In this document: positions 5,360-39,176 of the stretch, piece after piece | Numbering within the stretch: position 1 is the stretch's first letter | Layout of the letters: every line of letters begins with the position of its first letter | Source: Candidatus Bathyarchaeota archaeon | GTDB taxonomy: Archaea > Thermoproteota > Bathyarchaeia > 40CM-2-53-6 > RBG-13-38-9 | Length of the DNA stretch: 64,000 bases | NCBI GenBank assembly: GCA_963807605.1 | Contig: CAWECG010000004.1 | Coordinates: 320,001 to 384,000 of the forward strand | Direction: 5' to 3' | Program-made: the position numbers and the translations under genes | Notes under the pieces: model-generated | The model's input: only the letters and a program-made list of their open reading frames with translations | What the model was told of the DNA's origin: nothing | Database searches by the model: none

Positions 5360-5845
5360 ATGTTACAGATTGGTCAACGCACTGTTGCTCTGGGCGGAAC
5401 GTTTGAGCAACTCCACAGCGGACACCGAAAACTCATCCTAAGTGCTCTGCAAGTCGGCGACAGGGTTATCATCGGTTTGAGTAGCGACGGTTTCACAATC
5501 AACCTGAGGAAGAACCACTACATCAGTAGCTACGAATCCAGGCTTGCGAAGCTGAAGACCCTCCTTTCGGAGATCAACGCATTGCATAGGGTAACGATAG
5601 TGCCTCTGAACGACTGCTACGGCCCAGCGGTGACCGATGAAACTATCTCAAGAATAGTAGTTAGCCCTGAGACTCTGGAAACCGCTTTTGAGATTAACCG
5701 GATCCGCGTTCAGAAAGAAATGGGCCCTCTTGAAATATACGTCGTTAGTTTCATTCTCGGTGACGACGGAAAGCCTATCTCCACCTCTAGAATTAGTTTG
5801 GGTCTAATAAGCAAGAATGGGAGACTCCTACAAGAGACCTCATAG
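5360..5845 (+). CDS. coaD: Phosphopantetheine adenylyltransferase (archaeal type)
   Basis: GGTFxxLHxGH, IVVSPET and KPISTSRI motifs. Confidence 0.85.
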   Translation: MLQIGQRTVALGGTFEQLHSGHRKLILSALQVGDRVIIGLSSDGFTINLRKNHYISSYESRLAKLKTLLSEINALHRVTIVPLNDCYGPAVTDETISRIVVSPETLETAFEINRIRVQKEMGPLEIYVVSFILGDDGKPISTSRISLGLISKNGRLLQETS

Positions 5846-6222
5846 CGCTTGCCTTGGCACCATCATTTTGACGTGCTATGATCTTCAACGGATTATTCAC
5901 GGGTCTTTCATAAACTGGAGAGGGTTCCGAAAAATTGGAACAATCCGCCTCGTTTTCTCTAAAAAAATTGTTATTCCTTTAATCCTGTTTTCTTGGTACA
6001 CTAATAACTTACGTAAATGTCATAGGAAAGATCGACAAAGGCAAATGCAACTATTTGAGGAAAAGACTCCTTCATGCTCGCGTTAGCAGTCCAATATTTC
6101 GAAAGGACTTCAACGTTACGAAAAATCGAACGCTGAGGCAAGGATTGACCGATAGGGATTGGCCGAGGGAATCGGAGCATTTTATGATCTGCTGTCACGT
6201 GCGTGTGTCGGTAAAGAGATCT

Positions 6223-6654
6223 TCAGGAGAATTCCCTCTCCCACCTGTCGGAGATCTTATCGAGACTTTTTCGGAATTCTTCGAACTCTACGAAAAAGCC
6301 CTCCTTGAGAGAGTCACCGACGTACCTCTTGCTCCAAGACACCATACCCATGCGGAGTAGGTCGCGCCAAACATAATAGACTAGCCGCCTTGATGCTTTG
6401 AAGGGTTTGTTCCTCCAAGCGAAAGTGCCACTTTTGACGTTAGTGGCAAAGGCATTGAGAGCGTGTTTTGAAAAGTGTCCTTTTTTCTCCCTCAGTTCAT
6501 TGATCAGAAAATGGAGTACGAGACGTTGTTTTGTGTTAGCAGGATAGATGATGCTTGCAAAGTCAGGGTAAAGATTCAATGATAGATTTTCCTTGTCAAA
6601 ATGGATTCCCCTAAGCCGCGGTTGTGCATTTCCAATTGCACTTTTCAAGTTCAT
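6223..6654 (-). CDS. Conserved hypothetical protein, winged-helix-like
   Basis: 143-aa basic helical ORF, the only plausible gene in the gap; SRRLVYYVWRDLLRMGMVSW resembles a recognition helix plus wing. Confidence 0.55.
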   Translation of the reverse strand: MNLKSAIGNAQPRLRGIHFDKENLSLNLYPDFASIIYPANTKQRLVLHFLINELREKKGHFSKHALNAFATNVKSGTFAWRNKPFKASRRLVYYVWRDLLRMGMVSWSKRYVGDSLKEGFFVEFEEFRKSLDKISDRWEREFS

Positions 6655-6764
6655 AAAAGCTCACACTTGGCCATCTTGAAGTTTTGCCTATAGAAGCTTA
6701 TTTTGCAACGGTGATTGCATATACGCTTTTTCAAGATTCAATAAGCCGTGCAACTATTGTTGCA
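6625..6764. promoter_or_regulatory. Three TGCA-N8-TGCA palindromes (putative operators)
   Basis: TGCATTTCCAATTGCA (6625), TGCAACGGTGATTGCA (6704), TGCAACTATTGTTGCA (6749); partial copy TGCAACTATT at 6046. Confidence 0.6.
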
Positions 6765-6963
6765 TGAGCGTAATGCCACTTAGTAATGATACTAGGTCAC
6801 CATTAGAACCGGACTTTCGTATCTAAAACCTGGCCCTTTTCTGAAGAAATGCCGCGTCCAAAAGATTGGGCAGTGTCTCGTTCGGGGGGCGTCGGTTCCT
6901 AACGTCAAAGCAGCCTGTGTCCAATTTATTGGAGGTTCTGAGTCATTTCGAAAAATTGGAGGC

Positions 6964-7386
6964 CTAGGTTGTGTATCTGGTTTCCGACTTTTGTTTGGGT
7001 TGTTCTTGGGTAGCTGGAAATGGTGGAATGGGTGGCGGGACGCCTATGGTTTTGGCCAATACGATCGCTTCGGCGATCGCAACGCTTGAGACTTGCTGAA
7101 CGACCATATTAGGAGGGGGCTTCTGATTATTGAAGTCAGCCATTATCTGGTCAAGTTCGGTCTTTTCTCCCAGGGTTTGAGCTTTTCCCCTTATGTTGAT
7201 CTGAGCCACGGAGGGCGTGAAAGATACAGTAAAGACGAAGGGTGCCTCAACCATTCCAGGGGTCTTTCGTTCAAATCCTAGCAGATTGACATTTACAGCT
7301 ATCTGCAGCTGGGATGGAAGTGAAGTATCTATCCCCCAAAGTCTCTCTCCTGAGAGTTGAGTAACGAATACCCTAACGTTGGCCAT
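6964..7386 (-). CDS. Conserved archaeal hypothetical protein (possible SecB-like beta-sheet plus helix fold)
   Basis: Start at ATG 7386 (MANVRVF); four beta-strand-like segments, a long helix and a GVPPPIPP tail. Confidence 0.65.
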   Translation of the reverse strand: MANVRVFVTQLSGERLWGIDTSLPSQLQIAVNVNLLGFERKTPGMVEAPFVFTVSFTPSVAQINIRGKAQTLGEKTELDQIMADFNNQKPPPNMVVQQVSSVAIAEAIVLAKTIGVPPPIPPFPATQEQPKQKSETRYTT

Positions 7387-7414
7387 CTTCAACACGCCAA
7401 TAATGATCCGTTGG

Positions 7415-7672
7415 CTATTGGCTATAAGCGTTCGTAAAGGGCGTCTTAACGTGCCGCTTGCGTTTTGGCCTTGGAATCTTTTCAACAACCAGCTTATCTC
7501 CAAGAACCCTTGCGAGAAGAGACTGCCCTTCTCTGAATGGGAAACTCGAGTCATCGGTCAACTTTGTAGGCAGATATATCCTCGGGGAACGGTATGACAG
7601 TTTACCCTCTTTATTCTTCTTTCTCACAATCGTAAGTCTTACAGTCGTTTTGTTAACCATTTCCTTCACCAA
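7415..7672 (-). CDS. AbrB/MazE-like swapped-hairpin DNA-binding protein
   Basis: RIYLPTKL..DSSFPFREGQSLLARV..DKLVVEK pattern; basic. Confidence 0.7.
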   Translation of the reverse strand: MVKEMVNKTTVRLTIVRKKNKEGKLSYRSPRIYLPTKLTDDSSFPFREGQSLLARVLGDKLVVEKIPRPKRKRHVKTPFTNAYSQ

Positions 7673-7828
7673 TTGGTAAGCTAATTTATAATTGAGCTGG
7701 ACTATAAGACTTTAGTGTTGAAAGAGGGCGCCAACGAAGGATTTTGTGTTTGAGGACTCGTTTGAGCCGCGTAACCTTTTCATAGTGGAGATCATTCCAA
7801 TATTTGCAAATCGACCAGTGAATGGGTC

Positions 7829-33146: not shown

Positions 33147-33248
33147 GCCGGGATGGCCGAACGGTTCAGGCGGCGGGCTGCAGACAATCTTCCCAAGAGA
33201 AGCTGACTGAAACCCGCAGTATGTGGGTTCGACTCCCACGCCCGGCTT
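33147..33248 (+). tRNA. tRNA-Cys(GCA) with a 28-nt anticodon-loop intron
   Basis: GCCGGGA..GCGGG-CTGCAGA-[intron ~33184-33212]-CCCGC..GTGGGTTCGACTCCCAC-GCCCGGC-U73. Confidence 0.88.
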
Positions 33249-34446: not shown

Positions 34447-35511
34447 ATGTCCGAGTACATCAAAGAAATCGAGCTGAAGAAGATACAGCCAAACCGACTG
34501 AACCCTAGAGAGGAATTCAGAAAGGAATCACTAGACGAATTAGCCGATAGCATCTCTGAGGTGGGTTTACTCCAGCCACTCATTGTGCGTCCAGTGGACA
34601 GAGGATTCGAAGTAGTCGTAGGTGAGAGACGATATAGAGCTTCGCACCAAGCTGGCCTGGAGAAGGTGCCGGCAATCGTCAGAAAGTATGCCGACGATGA
34701 AGTGATAGAGCTCAACTTGATAGAAAACATACACCGCGAAGACTTGAGTGCAGTTGAGAAGGGAAGGACCTGCCTCAAATTGATGGAAACGTTTCCTGAG
34801 AAATATCCAACAGAAGAGTCAGTCGCAAAACACGTGGGGGTAAGCCAACTCACAATCAAAGACTGGCTGAAACTTGTCACAGCAATGCCCCGTAAAATCC
34901 AGCGAATGGTAGCTCCAGAGACCATCTCGCGGAGGGTTCCAGCAGGAAAGATTGAGTACACAACAGCTGTCAGAATCGCACGAAAGATAAAGGAACCTGG
35001 GAAACAGTTGAAGGTGGCAGAAACACTCGTTCAAAGGGGCATAAGAGGTGCCGTAGCAAGGCAGATAGTCAGCGAAGTCGCAAGGAAACCCGAAAGGCCT
35101 CTGGAGGAGATAGTCCAAGAAGTTGTCGAGGCTCAGGCCAGAATACCATTTAGGTTAGCCAACATTGAACCCGTTGTGAATGAGAGTAAGACCCAATTAT
35201 CCCTGAAAGGACTGGACCCGAAAATCCGAAAAGGCTCCATAGTCCAAGCCGACCTCTACGAGCCCCACTTTGCAGACCTTAGAGTGAGGGACGTCTTGAA
35301 AAAGAGACTGGGCGATTTTACAGATGAAGATACAAAGAGAGAAGGAGGATACAGCCTCAGTGAATTCAAGAAGTACTGGGAGGAGACCTACGGAGAAGGA
35401 AGCTGGGATCCCGATGAGAGAGTTGACATTGTACACTTCGAGGTTGTGAAGATGAATCCCAAGTTTGAAGAGTTGAGAAGAAGAATAAGCACGAAGTTCC
35501 TCCTTAAGTGA
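34447..35511 (+). CDS. ParB/Spo0J-like protein with a C-terminal ASCH (PUA-like) domain
   Basis: PR..F..L.ELADSI..VGLLQP, GERRYRA, ENIHREDL and an HTH; the C-terminus LGDFTDEDTKREG..SLSEFKKYWEETY..VDIVHFEVV is typical of ASCH. Confidence 0.85.
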   Translation: MSEYIKEIELKKIQPNRLNPREEFRKESLDELADSISEVGLLQPLIVRPVDRGFEVVVGERRYRASHQAGLEKVPAIVRKYADDEVIELNLIENIHREDLSAVEKGRTCLKLMETFPEKYPTEESVAKHVGVSQLTIKDWLKLVTAMPRKIQRMVAPETISRRVPAGKIEYTTAVRIARKIKEPGKQLKVAETLVQRGIRGAVARQIVSEVARKPERPLEEIVQEVVEAQARIPFRLANIEPVVNESKTQLSLKGLDPKIRKGSIVQADLYEPHFADLRVRDVLKKRLGDFTDEDTKREGGYSLSEFKKYWEETYGEGSWDPDERVDIVHFEVVKMNPKFEELRRRISTKFLLK

Positions 35512-35722: not shown

Positions 35723-37699
35723 ATGTCTGACGACAAATCCCGATCTCACACTAGTGAGAACCCTTATGAAGACATTCTATCAGGATGCCGGAATCTTTTG
35801 CGTGAGGCCCTCTCGTCCCAATTCCCCGATTTCCAAGACGCAGAGATCAAACTTGAAGAACCCCCCTCTCCACAATTCGGCGATTTGTCCACAATATTGA
35901 GCTTTCAAATCTCTAAGGCTCTGGGCGTTCGTGCCATAGAGATCGCGCAACGAATCGCCAGCTGCCCGAAACCTAGTAGTGACGGTTTGGTCAAGCAATT
36001 GGAGGCGTCTGGAGCAGGGTATCTCAACCTCCGCCTCAACCACGAGAAGATAAACGAGCTGACATTGCATTCTGTCAGGTCGCTTAATGACAGATATGGT
36101 TTCCCGCATACAGATAGGCCTGAAAAGATCGCGGTGGAACATAGCAGCATAAACCCCGTACATTCAATCCATATTGGACAGGCACGAAACTCGATCTTAG
36201 GAGATGCCATATCGAGAATCTTGAAAGCTAGAGGACACGAAGTTGAAGTTCACTTCTACATAAATGACGCAGGGCGACAGAGCGCCATAGTGTCCTACGG
36301 GTACGAAAAAATCCGCCGTCCAACTCCCAGCATCAAATCTGACCATTACTTGGGCCAAGTCTATAGCATAACCTCATGCCTAGTGGAGATTCAAAACCTG
36401 AAGAAGGCAATGAGTAACGTGGCAAGCGACGAATCTCTCACAGAAGAGAGAAGTCAGATCCAAAATAGACTGGACGAGTGGACATCAGTTGCATTTGAAC
36501 TACAGAATCGATATCCGGAATTATTTGAGCGACTTAGAAAAGAGATCAGCATTAGCTCCGAGGCTGACACTCAAATCAACAATCTTCTAAGAGAATATGA
36601 GCAGCACACACCGAGCGCGACGGACCTAATCAGACAAGTGAGCGAGCTTTGTATCAATGGCTTTAAACAGACCTTTTCAAGGCTTAACATATGTTTCGAC
36701 GTCTGGGACTGGGAGAGCGATCTACTCTGGTCACACAAGGTTGCTGATGTGCTTCAGAGGTTGCTCAAGACAAAATATGTTTCAAAGGAAGACGGAACTC
36801 TCAGACTTGAATCGGAATTGGCTGTCGAGGAACTCGGAATCCGCCAACTCCTCAATTTGGGCGATGATTACGTACTTCCATCGGTCTCTTTAACGAGATC
36901 AGATGGGACGACGTTGTACATAGCTCGGGACATCGCCTACAGCCTCCTTAAGTTCGGGAAGTGTAGCAGCGTCGTAAACGTCGTTGGAATGGAACAAGTG
37001 CATGAACAATTGCATGTGCGCGTTGCTCTTTCTATTTTGAGCCTCAAGGAACTCGCAAGAAAACAGCAACACTTCACATTTGGCTTAGTACGCTTTCCCG
37101 GAGAGAAAATGTCAAGTCGAAGAGGGCGAATCGTGCCCTTAGACGAGGTTATAGACGAGGCAATAAGAAGAGCCTACGTTGAGATCGAAAAACGCACAAC
37201 AGATCTTGACGATACTGAGAAGCGTAGGAGAGCAGAGACCATAGGAATCGGGGCATTAAAGTACGCGTTGCTTTCGGTCGAGCCATCACGTGAAGTCGAT
37301 TTCTCTTGGGATCGAGTCCTGAACTTGGAAATGAACAGTGCACCCTTCATCAATTATGGATACACAAGGGCTAACGGCATACTGAGAAAAATCGGCTCAA
37401 TACGTGACGACGTAAACTATGGAAGGTTAGATAGTACCGCAGAACGACGTCTTATCCTAACCCTGGCCAAATTCCCCAGCATCTTTGCTGAAGCGGCAGA
37501 CAGACTTCGTCCAGACGACTTGGCTAATTACGTAAACCAATTGACCAAGCAGTTCCACGAGTACTATGAGCATTTCGACGTATCACATCTTGAGGATGAT
37601 GAACTGCGATATGCCAGAGGCTCGCTCATTGAGGCAATACAAATAGTGATTCGTAACTGTATGCGTATACTTGGCATAGAACTTCAAGAGAGAATGTAA
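35723..37699 (+). CDS. argS: Arginyl-tRNA synthetase
   Basis: FGD, HIGQARN (HIGH-like), RSDGTTLY and KMSSRRG motifs; DALR domain. Confidence 0.95.
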   Translation: MSDDKSRSHTSENPYEDILSGCRNLLREALSSQFPDFQDAEIKLEEPPSPQFGDLSTILSFQISKALGVRAIEIAQRIASCPKPSSDGLVKQLEASGAGYLNLRLNHEKINELTLHSVRSLNDRYGFPHTDRPEKIAVEHSSINPVHSIHIGQARNSILGDAISRILKARGHEVEVHFYINDAGRQSAIVSYGYEKIRRPTPSIKSDHYLGQVYSITSCLVEIQNLKKAMSNVASDESLTEERSQIQNRLDEWTSVAFELQNRYPELFERLRKEISISSEADTQINNLLREYEQHTPSATDLIRQVSELCINGFKQTFSRLNICFDVWDWESDLLWSHKVADVLQRLLKTKYVSKEDGTLRLESELAVEELGIRQLLNLGDDYVLPSVSLTRSDGTTLYIARDIAYSLLKFGKCSSVVNVVGMEQVHEQLHVRVALSILSLKELARKQQHFTFGLVRFPGEKMSSRRGRIVPLDEVIDEAIRRAYVEIEKRTTDLDDTEKRRRAETIGIGALKYALLSVEPSREVDFSWDRVLNLEMNSAPFINYGYTRANGILRKIGSIRDDVNYGRLDSTAERRLILTLAKFPSIFAEAADRLRPDDLANYVNQLTKQFHEYYEHFDVSHLEDDELRYARGSLIEAIQIVIRNCMRILGIELQERM

Positions 37700-38038
37700 G
37701 CCTCACGCGCCCGCGTAATTAGCAGCGAGCGCGATACGATGTTGACAGCGTGGGGCGAGTTCAAGAAGAAATATGAAAACGTCATTTCAGCGCGCGGCCA
37801 TAACTAGGCAAGTAATCGCAGCTTGCCGGTGCAAACTCAAATGACTGACGACGACCAACCGTTTAAGATCAGTCGAATCCGGCAGACTGGACCATGGACA
37901 TTCTCCGAAGCCGATGGATTTTGTGAGTAGACTAGCCATAAAGGAATGTGGCCGCCAACAACCTAGAAAATAGCAACCCCAACAAACGCTTAATGATAAA
38001 TATTAGAAAGGTGACCAATATTCGGTGGTTGATGGTAT

Positions 38039-38275
38039 ATGCCAACAGCTTTTGTCCTAATTAACGCGGAGCTTGGCAAGGAAGAGGGCATCCTCAAGGA
38101 GTTGAGAAGCATAAGCAGTTGCAAGGAAGCGCATTTCGTCTACGGCGTCTACGACATCATAGCCAAGGTAGAGGCTGAGAGCATGGAGAAGCTTAAGGAG
38201 ATCGTAACCTTCAAGATCAGAAGGCTCCCCGATGTCAGAAGCACGCTCACTATGACTGTAGCTGAGGGGATTTAA
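38039..38275 (+). CDS. Lrp/AsnC ligand-binding (RAM) domain protein
   Basis: AFVLIN...VYGVYDIIAKV...VRSTLTM. Confidence 0.9.
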   Translation: MPTAFVLINAELGKEEGILKELRSISSCKEAHFVYGVYDIIAKVEAESMEKLKEIVTFKIRRLPDVRSTLTMTVAEGI

Positions 38276-38348
38276 GGCCAGTTCAGGGAACCGTCTTACC
38301 AATTTATTCCTAAGCAAACCTACGCCTGGGACACTGAAGAGCCGACGA

Positions 38349-39176
38349 CTATAGGCTACTTAGTTTACTCTCTAGTTTCATTATCACAGCTATTGCTGAC
38401 GAACCCACGAGAGAACTGCCACGGCTATTCCTTTCACCCATAGTCATCTGTCGGACGTGCTCGTCGTAGGGTATCACGAGGTCCAAATGATGCCCTTGTC
38501 CAACTAAGGTTCTTTCGATAAATTCCTCCTCGGCCTTGTCCTTTACCTTATTTGCGATGAACATGTGTTTCGATACACCAAGTTCCACAACAAGTCGCCA
38601 AATCTTCAAAGAGGTCTCGATTGATTGCAGTGAAGGTTCAATAACATTTATGATAGTATCAACGGATCGAATTGTTCCACGTCCAAGATGTTCCAGACCG
38701 GCTTCCATATCAAGAATAACCGTTGCGCTCATCTTGCTGAACACATAACGTAGGAGAGCTCGGAGCAGAGCATTTGCCGGGCACATGCATCCTTGGCCTG
38801 CGCTTCTGACTGTTCCCATTATGAGGAGTCTCACGCCATCTGGGCTGTCTAGCGCATATTTCTCAACAACGTCATCCACCGTAGGATTCAGATTGAAGAC
38901 AGAACTCCCAGAGTCATCGCCGCCGACACTTGTCAGCTCCTTTATGAGATTGGCATCCTCGCAAAGAGGTGTGATCGCGTTAGCTGTCTCCTGCGGTATG
39001 CCCAGCTCAAGATAGAGGTTTGTGGACGGGTCAGCGTCTATCGCTATGACCATCTTACTAGGATCCAGCTTCTTGAACTGTTTTGCGAGTGTGCCGGCGA
39101 TGAAGGTTTTACCAACTCCACCTTTCCCGACAACTGCAATCTTCAATCCAGACAACCTCATACAAACTGTTGCCAC
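38349..39176 (-). CDS. cooC: CODH/ACS nickel-insertion ATPase CooC
   Basis: GKGGVGKT, DADP, GCMCP and DMEAGLEHLGRGT motifs. Confidence 0.9.
   Translation of the reverse strand: MATVCMRLSGLKIAVVGKGGVGKTFIAGTLAKQFKKLDPSKMVIAIDADPSTNLYLELGIPQETANAITPLCEDANLIKELTSVGGDDSGSSVFNLNPTVDDVVEKYALDSPDGVRLLIMGTVRSAGQGCMCPANALLRALLRYVFSKMSATVILDMEAGLEHLGRGTIRSVDTIINVIEPSLQSIETSLKIWRLVVELGVSKHMFIANKVKDKAEEEFIERTLVGQGHHLDLVIPYDEHVRQMTMGERNSRGSSLVGSSAIAVIMKLESKLSSL

Follow-up and report, generated by a model that had tools for sequence, protein, structure and literature searches.

What is the role of the short palindromes that surround a small gene in a genome of the Bathyarchaeia, uncultured and abundant sediment archaea whose cis-acting chromosomal elements are almost wholly uncharacterized? 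The locus lies at 326 kb on contig C4, within the 64,000-nucleotide stretch of DNA that was analysed (the window, to which positions refer unless a contig is named). A first-pass annotation had proposed, as its lead hypothesis, that it is a non-canonical replication origin. We find that the locus does not look like an origin, and that it looks like a replaceable, invertible gene slot marked by candidate docking sites. Two properties make it accessible to experiment: the motif is short, sharp and unique in each genome throughout the order, and the candidate binders are small enough for in-vitro work. The features of the locus, in order of position, are as follows.

5360 to 5845, plus strand: gene for a PPAT-like cytidylyltransferase (Pfam CTP_transf_like, E 5.9e-12), convergent, the right-hand flank of the slot and syntenic in relatives.
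5925 to 5940, no strand: single family A site, TTCCGAAAAATTGGAA, with an equivalent near the PPAT gene in four of six aligned f1 loci.
5953 to 6012, no strand: AT-rich tract, not conserved in relatives except for the block given in the next line.
5993 to 6024, no strand: conserved non-coding block with two further short palindromes (TTGGTAYACCAA-like and TTACGTAA), alignable in all f1 loci.
6089 to 6131, no strand: pair of family A sites (6089 and 6116) downstream of ORF143, conserved in several genera.
6223 to 6654, minus strand: ORF143, a basic protein with a predicted winged helix and C-terminal helix (conservation; AF2 model).
6704 to 6764, no strand: family B palindromes, TGCAAY-N4-RTTGCA, with copies at 6704-6719 and 6749-6764, 45 bp apart.
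6718 to 6733, minus strand: BRE/TATA-like block GAAAAAGCGTATATGC, candidate promoter of ORF143, nearly invariant in six aligned f1 loci.
6856 to 6871, no strand: family A-like site D, GTCCAAAAGATTGGGC, present in the window and poorly conserved among relatives.
6919 to 6961, no strand: pair of family A sites (6919 and 6946) abutting the stop codon of ORF196.
6964 to 7389, minus strand: ORF196, with a predicted SecB-like fold (AF2 pLDDT 82), the left-hand flank of the slot and conserved across the order.
7415 to 7672, minus strand: ORF85, a small putative DNA-binding protein, AbrB-like by sequence pattern only.

The six family A 16-mers that had been reported at 5925, 6089, 6116, 6856, 6919 and 6946 are all present. 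Their description as 16-bp palindromes holds in part: they are imperfect, with self-complementarity at 6-12 of 16 positions, and the unit is better described as a dyad of 14 bp, TYSRA-N4-TYSRA, whose half-sites read TCCAA or TTCGA on either side of a W-rich 4-bp centre. Across loci the consensus is TCCAA/TTCGA-N4-TTGGA/TCGAA, in pairs spaced 27-28 bp apart, and both pairs in the window have the spacing of exactly 27 bp that was first noted. The symmetry seen by the first-pass annotation, with a single site and a pair on each side of the gene, exists in the window, but site D is not conserved in relatives and the symmetry is thus partly coincidental. The two pairs are related in sequence, in that the pair at 6089-6131 contains a 20-nt inverted repeat (90%) with 6941-6960. 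A stricter form of the motif, TTNCGAAAWATYGRA, has four matches in the window versus 0.01 expected, and a scan of the 2.65-Mb genome returned four matches, all at this locus. Likewise, the pair pattern TYSRAN4TYSRA-N12-14-TYSRAN4TYSRA occurs nowhere else in the genome. The family A array is not a product of chance. Its dyads have 5-6-bp arms, a 4-bp centre, half-site centres 9 bp apart and 11-13 bp from one dyad to the next, a geometry that fits a winged-helix or AbrB dimer and not a recombinase core.

About 690 nt of the 1.1 kb at the locus are non-coding. This had been taken for the largest low-coding stretch of the window, but a crude ORF mask places larger non-coding gaps elsewhere (e.g. 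37697-38351). Upstream of ORF143, 50-110 bp from its start, the family B palindromes abut or overlap the BRE/TATA-like block in each of the six aligned f1 loci. By its sequence and position, this block could be the ORF143 promoter. Family B is conserved in f1 loci, and a search of slot loci in the other families did not find it. The same is true of the block at 5993-6024, whose combined pattern has no second match in the genome.

Because the sites abut the stop codons of convergent genes and have T- or A-rich centres, the palindromes might be structured non-coding RNAs or intrinsic terminators and not protein sites. This is hardly credible given that the conserved parts are the arms (TCCAA/TTGGA) and not a T-run, and that the T- or A-rich centres have no consistent orientation. 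The region has no Rfam match (the best was sR20, E 0.66, far below its gathering score) and folding z-scores of -0.07 and -0.46. Moreover, in genomes that lack the slot, nothing of the kind follows the ORF196 stop codon ('empty' ends in G004, G007 and G030).

The arrangement of these features recurs across the order as ORF85, ORF196, a site pair, a small winged-helix gene, a second site pair and the convergent PPAT gene. The neighbours at every locus examined are ORF85, ORF196, PPAT, UbiX/UbiD and Por genes, and a site pair follows the ORF196 stop across the order. In families f1, f2, f6 and f9, the motif, the 27-28-bp spacing and the place right after the ORF196 and PPAT stops are all conserved. 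The earlier proposal of a cis-acting DNA system is borne out by this recurrence of motif and spacing next to homologues in further genera and families. There are variations on the layout. In family f10, site pairs lie beside ORF85 instead of at the ORF196 and PPAT stops; G024, a member of this family, has two pairs beside ORF85 and its winged-helix gene on another contig. Family f8 has ORF85 and a 152-aa gene without clear pairs, and in the f1 genera g4 and g7 (genomes sampled at 96-98% completeness) neither the sites nor ORF85 nor any of the three slot proteins described below is present. In genus g23, two convergent stop codons leave only ~50 bp, which the pair fills, and the pair cannot be a promoter operator there.

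The true length of ORF196 is probably 141 aa, and Foldseek ranks the Rv1957 SecB-like chaperone and E. coli SecB highest among its matches (E 7e-4 to 1e-3). ORF85 was found in 92 of the 105 genomes of the order and adjoins site pairs in most families. It has no Pfam match and could be the protein that binds family A.

ORF143 is real and strongly conserved. Its homologues fall into 15 clusters with 74-97% identity, all of them hypothetical proteins of Bathyarchaeia, and it is present in 9 of 15 genomes of the same family. Between genera it is 75-80% identical, versus 55-68% for PPAT. The protein is basic, as had been claimed (pI 10.1), and its suspected winged-helix character agrees with the AF2 model (pLDDT 74, core near 90), which predicts a winged helix of generic fold with helices at 42-56, 63-75 and 89-101, a hairpin at 105-122 and a helix at 125-142. 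Searches returned no Pfam family at E <= 1 and no NCBIfam family at E <= 0.1, and matches in the protein atlas were confined to archaeal clusters without a name. The five best Foldseek matches of the model are all B. subtilis RTP (E 7.5e-3 to 3.6e-2), and PadR, LmrR and MecI are among the structural matches. In VIA-align, RTP is tied with PadR, MecI, Orc winged-helix domains, F93 and TubR at Z 7-7.9, TubR having Z 7.0.

The modelled protein resembles PadR/MarR autoregulators, being a putative small dimer-type winged helix with a C-terminal helix, and the family B palindromes abut its own TATA-like candidate promoter. Unlike those regulators, ORF143 belongs to no Pfam or NCBIfam family, and the family A array is found at gene 3' ends on both sides and not at a promoter, and is kept when the slot protein family changes.

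An origin of replication is suggested by the inverted repeat boxes, the AT tract (75% AT, as first noted) and the non-coding DNA, all of which are reminiscent of archaeal oriC regions. The tied fold matches of ORF143 include Orc winged-helix domains, and there are no obvious ORB arrays beside the two orc1/cdc6 genes of the genome. The TCCA...TGGA dyad also has a superficial likeness to the mini-ORB. However, TCCAA-N4-TTGGA has no G-string and, as the first-pass annotation recognized, is not a canonical ORB. Cdc6_C matches occur only at C3:881 kb and C4:139-140 kb, confirming that the window has no cdc6; the nearer Orc1/Cdc6 gene is 186 kb away, and the locus lacks the adjacent initiator gene (orc1/cdc6 or whiP) that is associated with archaeal oriC. 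It is situated in a zone (C4, 290-360 kb) where cumulative skew has a broad maximum and genes are oriented convergently, such that skew and gene orientation converge here rather than diverge; it is orc1 at C3:881 kb that coincides with a local disparity minimum. The maximum in this genome is a plateau ~70 kb wide and is not reproduced in four relatives; skew is weak in these genomes. The GC-skew inflection that the first-pass annotation had suggested looking for is missing: there is no origin-type switch here or in G118, G016, G306 and G146, in which the locus has no consistent extremum. Further, the AT tract is not conserved, and the g23 pair has room only between two stop codons. The origin hypothesis is contradicted by initiator distance, motif type and skew, and we consider it extremely improbable, which removes a false lead.

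ORF143 could act as an RTP/Ter-like replication fork trap on opposed composite sites beside its own gene. The five best Foldseek matches and the broad skew maximum with convergent gene orientation in this genome are in line with this. In B. subtilis, TerI and TerII are opposed paired dimer sites next to rtp, an arrangement that the opposed, paired candidate dimer sites recall. The structural match is unspecific, however, given the ties of RTP with many winged-helix families. The position is not reproduced in relatives, since no skew extremum was found at the locus in G118, G016 and G306, which have family A sites, or in G146, which has no clear sites. In addition, the sites are kept with unrelated slot proteins, and dyads 27 bp apart are unlike the overlapping A/B sites of Ter. 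We consider a fork trap very improbable.

The genes found between the pairs are informative about the sites. The slot is filled by three mutually exclusive families of small proteins that are jointly near-universal. ORF143 is the occupant in f1 only. A 152-aa family occurs in 52 of 105 genomes, never in f1 or genera g9, g20 and g25, and is a near-universal, single-copy slot gene. The third family, wH133 (133 aa), occupies the slot of g9, g20 and g25 together with a tyrosine recombinase. Profile comparison with hhalign points to probable homology between ORF143 and the 152-aa family (probability 60%, E 8.6e-5, 101 columns) and gave no support for homology of wH133 to either (probabilities 0.3-6%). 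The slot proteins appear functionally equivalent. With respect to its flanks, the slot gene has been inverted in f1 genus g3, f2 genus g23 and f6.

The family A sites are not specific to ORF143, as they are kept where the slot holds other proteins. Indeed, the motif is unchanged although the putative recognition helices of the slot-protein families differ greatly, and thus family A may be bound by something other than the slot protein. On visual inspection, both half-site types accompany all three families, so covariation does not identify the binder. The order as a whole constitutes a natural experiment in which the candidate bound protein was apparently swapped three times and the DNA stayed the same.

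Repeated inversion and replacement of the slot gene between the pairs might indicate that the pairs delimit a cassette for site-specific recombination, with the slot gene as cargo or accessory and a recombinase that was lost here or acts in trans. The tyrosine recombinase genes of g9, g20 and g25 (Pfam Phage_integrase) lie beside a pair within the slot, and that of g9 is 87-92% conserved within the genus. A 47-49% identical recombinase is encoded in the present genome at C1:287794-289005, and distant homologues of ORF143 in family f17 are found within integrated elements, where they adjoin integrases as well as MCM or AAA genes. A short variable cassette between conserved, inversely oriented short sites, with inversions and with a recombinase inside the cassette in some lineages, is similar to the Hin/hix segment and to the dif modules of Acinetobacter, which are exchangeable recombination cassettes (PMC6449649, PMC13141974). 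Unlike in those systems, no recombinase gene is present at the locus in this genome, slot inversions are rare and fixed per genus, and the geometry misfits Xer and tyrosine-recombinase cores. Core sites of tyrosine recombinases consist of two 9-13-bp arms around a 6-8-bp spacer, and the arms, centres and inter-dyad distances of family A are wrong for this. Where the flanking copies are direct repeats they are only ~70% alike, and hence are not fresh att duplications. Within a genus the slot has one fixed orientation, which gives no indication of active switching; both orientations and three alternative contents occur between the same sites on an evolutionary scale only. Finally, the 356-aa recombinase family is sporadic (12 of 105 genomes), and the near-universal, single-copy 152-aa slot gene is not typical cargo. 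Such a cassette is possible but unlikely.

Related candidates were rejected or downgraded. A dif/Xer site does not agree with the 11-6-11 rule that such sites follow (PMC2958812), and the 356-aa recombinase family is sporadic. A dispersed repeat or MITE with terminal inverted repeats does not agree with a motif unique to the locus and a syntenic locus. A decayed integrated mobile element was downgraded in view of the 152-aa family as a near-universal, single-copy occupant of the same slot. Hints of mobile elements were seen in the integrase and MCM contexts of distant homologues, a cassette in G016 and the 'empty' ORF196 ends.

By analogy with plasmid centromeres (TubR/tubC, AspA of pNOB8, ParR/parC), in which a unique cluster of dyads also adjoins a gene for a small DNA-binding protein, the sites might form a centromere-like, SMC-loading or boundary landmark bound by the adjacent small winged-helix protein. 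There is one cluster per genome, conserved across the order and away from promoters, next to a near-universal, single-copy slot gene whose putative DNA-binding product matches centromere-binding proteins in size and fold class, as the TubR match illustrates. In contrast to the plasmid systems, the locus is chromosomal and syntenic across the order, and no ParA, ParM or TubZ-type partner NTPase is encoded in or beside it. The ParB at 34447, which the first-pass annotation had offered as a possible partner of the sites, is a true ParB_N and HTH_ParB protein, but no family A motif occurs near its gene, 27 kb away. The lack of sites, ORF85 and slot proteins in g4 and g7, and the lack of clear sites in f8, also count against a landmark of this kind, which we judge improbable. 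A version in which the pairs would be a genome-unique landmark of the order (a centromere-like or loading site, or a dedicated recombination slot) with a constant motif, three small winged-helix proteins that replaced one another and the conserved AbrB-like/SecB-like pair as the invariant partner, is rather unlikely. If the sites do prove to be a segregation, loading or recombination landmark, they would be a first handle on the chromosome biology of this lineage.

We tentatively favour docking sites that insulate or loop the slot gene and that occasionally serve as recombination points. We hypothesize that the family A palindromes are docked by a small dimeric DNA-binding protein, and we infer that this would be either the slot protein or ORF85. 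Each dyad would take one dimer and each pair two cooperating dimers. The pairs, at the 3' ends of the flanking genes, bracket a slot in which there is always one small winged-helix gene, here ORF143. When bound, they could insulate that gene from read-through by its convergent neighbours, and they may bridge each other, enclosing the slot gene in a loop. Separately, the family B palindromes at the TATA-like promoter might fine-tune ORF143, which could be autoregulated. The two pairs are inverted repeats of each other and for this reason might also serve as occasional recombination points, and this proposed role could account for the repeated inversions and replacements of the slot across the order. 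Sites that were regulatory or insulating would represent an unusual operator architecture, placed at gene 3' ends on both sides of a gene.

A family A site is also present in the Por/ORF85 promoter in some lineages only; the window has just a hybrid, TCCAATATTTGCAA, at 7796.

The source Bathyarchaeia genome (2.65 Mb in five contigs, with the window at positions 320001-384000 of contig C4) carries at this locus a genuine cis-element, found nowhere else in that genome and conserved across the order. The six 16-mers reported in the first-pass annotation are all present at the positions given, but as 16-bp palindromes they are imperfect, being self-complementary at only 6-12 of 16 positions. What recurs in family A is a 14-bp dyad whose half-sites, TCCAA or TTCGA, flank a W-rich centre of 4 bp. 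The 27-bp spacing is exact in both pairs, and their outer dyads make a 20-nt inverted repeat (90%) around the small gene ORF143. The motif TTNCGAAAWATYGRA has four matches in the window versus 0.01 expected, and four in the whole genome, all within the locus, which is also the single genomic occurrence of the pair pattern. Given these match counts and the genome-unique pair pattern, the array is not a chance arrangement.

Features discussed here (window coordinates)
6223-6654, minus strand: ORF143, pI 10.1
6704 and 6749: family B palindromes TGCAAY-N4-RTTGCA, from the six-locus alignment
6964-7672, minus strand: ORF85 and ORF196, the latter directly downstream of the AbrB-like 85-aa gene
33147-33247, plus strand: tRNA match (Rfam, 101 nt, 42 bits)
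34447-35511, plus strand: 354-aa ParB-type protein (domains ParB_N and HTH_ParB; C-terminus weakly ASCH-like)

The basic ORF embedded in the array is a real gene, conserved among Bathyarchaeia. Its 15 close clusters (74-97% identity) are all Bathyarchaeia hypothetical proteins, only 8 clusters were found at the 50% level among 1.8 billion proteins, and its between-genus identity (75-80%) exceeds that of the neighboring cytidylyltransferase-like gene, PPAT (55-68%). Searches of Pfam and NCBIfam returned no match. AlphaFold predicts a winged helix with a long helix at its C-terminal end; Foldseek placed RTP of B. subtilis at the top, followed by PadR/LmrR and Orc winged-helix domains. All three were tied in VIA-align (Z 7-7.9), which argues that the predicted fold is a generic dimer-type winged helix. 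Upstream of ORF143, an alignment of six same-family loci revealed a nearly invariant BRE/TATA-like block, GAAAAAGCGTATATGC, that adjoins one of the two family B palindromes, the region lying 50-110 bp before the start and being accompanied by an SD-like GGTGAG. Only ORF143-type loci carry family B, and the same holds for a conserved block at 5993-6024. A hybrid dyad (TCCAATATTTGCAA, 7796-7809), composed of a family A and a family B half-site, precedes the PorG start by ~20-35 bp and may be a chance occurrence.

The gene order is Por genes, ORF85, ORF196, pair, ORF143, pair, convergent PPAT, UbiX and UbiD. Dyads with 27-28-bp spacing recur around homologous genes in other genera; among 105 genomes sampled from the order, 49 matched the pair pattern, and a reversed control pattern was much rarer. 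Genomes usually have one pair, with the consensus (C)TCCAAWWWWTTGGAG, 11-12 bp, CTCCAAWWWWTTGGA; it directly follows the stop of the ORF196 homologue, except in a few degenerate matches that fall within coding sequence. A second pair, if present, is usually 3' of the PPAT stop. Two genera (g4 and g7) of family f1 have neither family A sites nor ORF85 nor any of the three slot proteins described below; in both, ORF196 adjoins a convergent flavodoxin-like gene.

The slot between the pairs holds one of three alternative small proteins. ORF143 is confined to f1 in this role. A 152-aa family is single-copy in 52/105 genomes (genera g21 and g23 of f2, and f3-f10), with no member in f1, g9, g20 or g25, and is probably homologous to ORF143 judging by hhalign (probability 60%, E 8.6e-5, 101 columns). 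The third, the 133-aa wH133, occurs in g9, g20 and g25, with two weak matches elsewhere, and has no demonstrable relation to either; at the loci examined it has a tyrosine recombinase alongside, and in some of these the recombinase is truncated or split. The slot gene has the same direction as ORF196 in most of f1, f9, f5 and f3, and is inverted in f1 g3 (seen by blastn, and also in 4/18 metagenome loci), f2 g23 and f6, so inversion between the pairs occurred more than once. Orientation is constant inside each genus.

Because the family A motif is constant across slot-protein families whose putative recognition helices differ, an invariant partner is the candidate binder to which the comparison tentatively points. 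The AbrB-like core of ORF85 is very conserved, and the gene adjoins pairs in most families. In G024, an f10 genome, two pairs lie at and beyond the 3' end of ORF85, with the winged-helix gene located on a different contig. The first of these pairs overlaps the 3' coding end of ORF85, its basic tail (L101:3440-3500, G024:C1); the second is 340 bp beyond, within ~700 bp of non-coding DNA. Against ORF85 as binder, f8 has this gene without clear pairs. The ORF196 model is a SecB-like chaperone, with its best match to M. tuberculosis Rv1957, the chaperone of a toxin-antitoxin-chaperone system; on this basis ORF85 and ORF196 may be a DNA-binder and chaperone pair. The two genes are kept together across the order. 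SecB-like proteins are uncommon among archaea. As listed, ORF196 starts at 7554 and overlaps ORF85; its true start is therefore probably 7389.

An origin at this locus, as first proposed, is contradicted by the positions of the two Orc1/Cdc6 genes (C3:881 kb and C4:139-140 kb) and by the skew. The locus lies within a 70-kb plateau at the C4 cumulative GC-skew maximum where gene orientation converges, a terminus-like rather than origin-like configuration, and no consistent extremum was found there in three relatives with family A sites (G118, G016, G306) or in one without clear sites (G146). Purine disparity and gene-strand bias both reach a local minimum at the Orc1/Cdc6 gene on C3, and the ~880 kb region is a likely replication origin; the short intergenic DNA flanking that gene has no obvious repeat boxes. 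Rfam and RNA folding were both negative for a structured RNA at the locus. The other first-pass proposal, a centromere-like element, is a candidate that lacks a motor protein, and no family A motif was found near the ParB-type gene. We tentatively favor, at somewhat less than even confidence, a mechanism in which a protein would dock on the paired dyads and so insulate or loop a small, putatively autoregulated winged-helix gene, with the inverted pairs doubling as occasional recombination points.

Recombinases occupy the g9 and g20 slots, and some g9 genomes have an extra insertion in the slot, encoding a second short tyrosine recombinase and a GIY-YIG protein (L063:1042-3093, G016:C37). The geometry of the family A dyads does not fit a tyrosine-recombinase core, and it breaks the 11-6-11 rule of dif sites (PMC2958812). 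The source genome encodes a 403-aa tyrosine recombinase (C1:287794-289005; L100:1069-2280) 47-49% identical to those of the g20 slots, from a family sporadic in only 12/105 genomes; it stands alone among AMP-pathway and RuBisCO-like genes. Distant ORF143 homologues in f17 are flanked by MCM or AAA genes on one side and integrases on the other. At three such loci (L048, L049, L051) the order is AAA or MCM helicase, small ORF, ORF143 homologue and tyrosine integrase, in integrated-element contexts with their own, different 16-bp palindromes nearby (e.g. GCTTAAAGCCCTAAGC). Elsewhere in the window, the tRNA match, not reported by ARAGORN, is probably an intron-containing tRNA.
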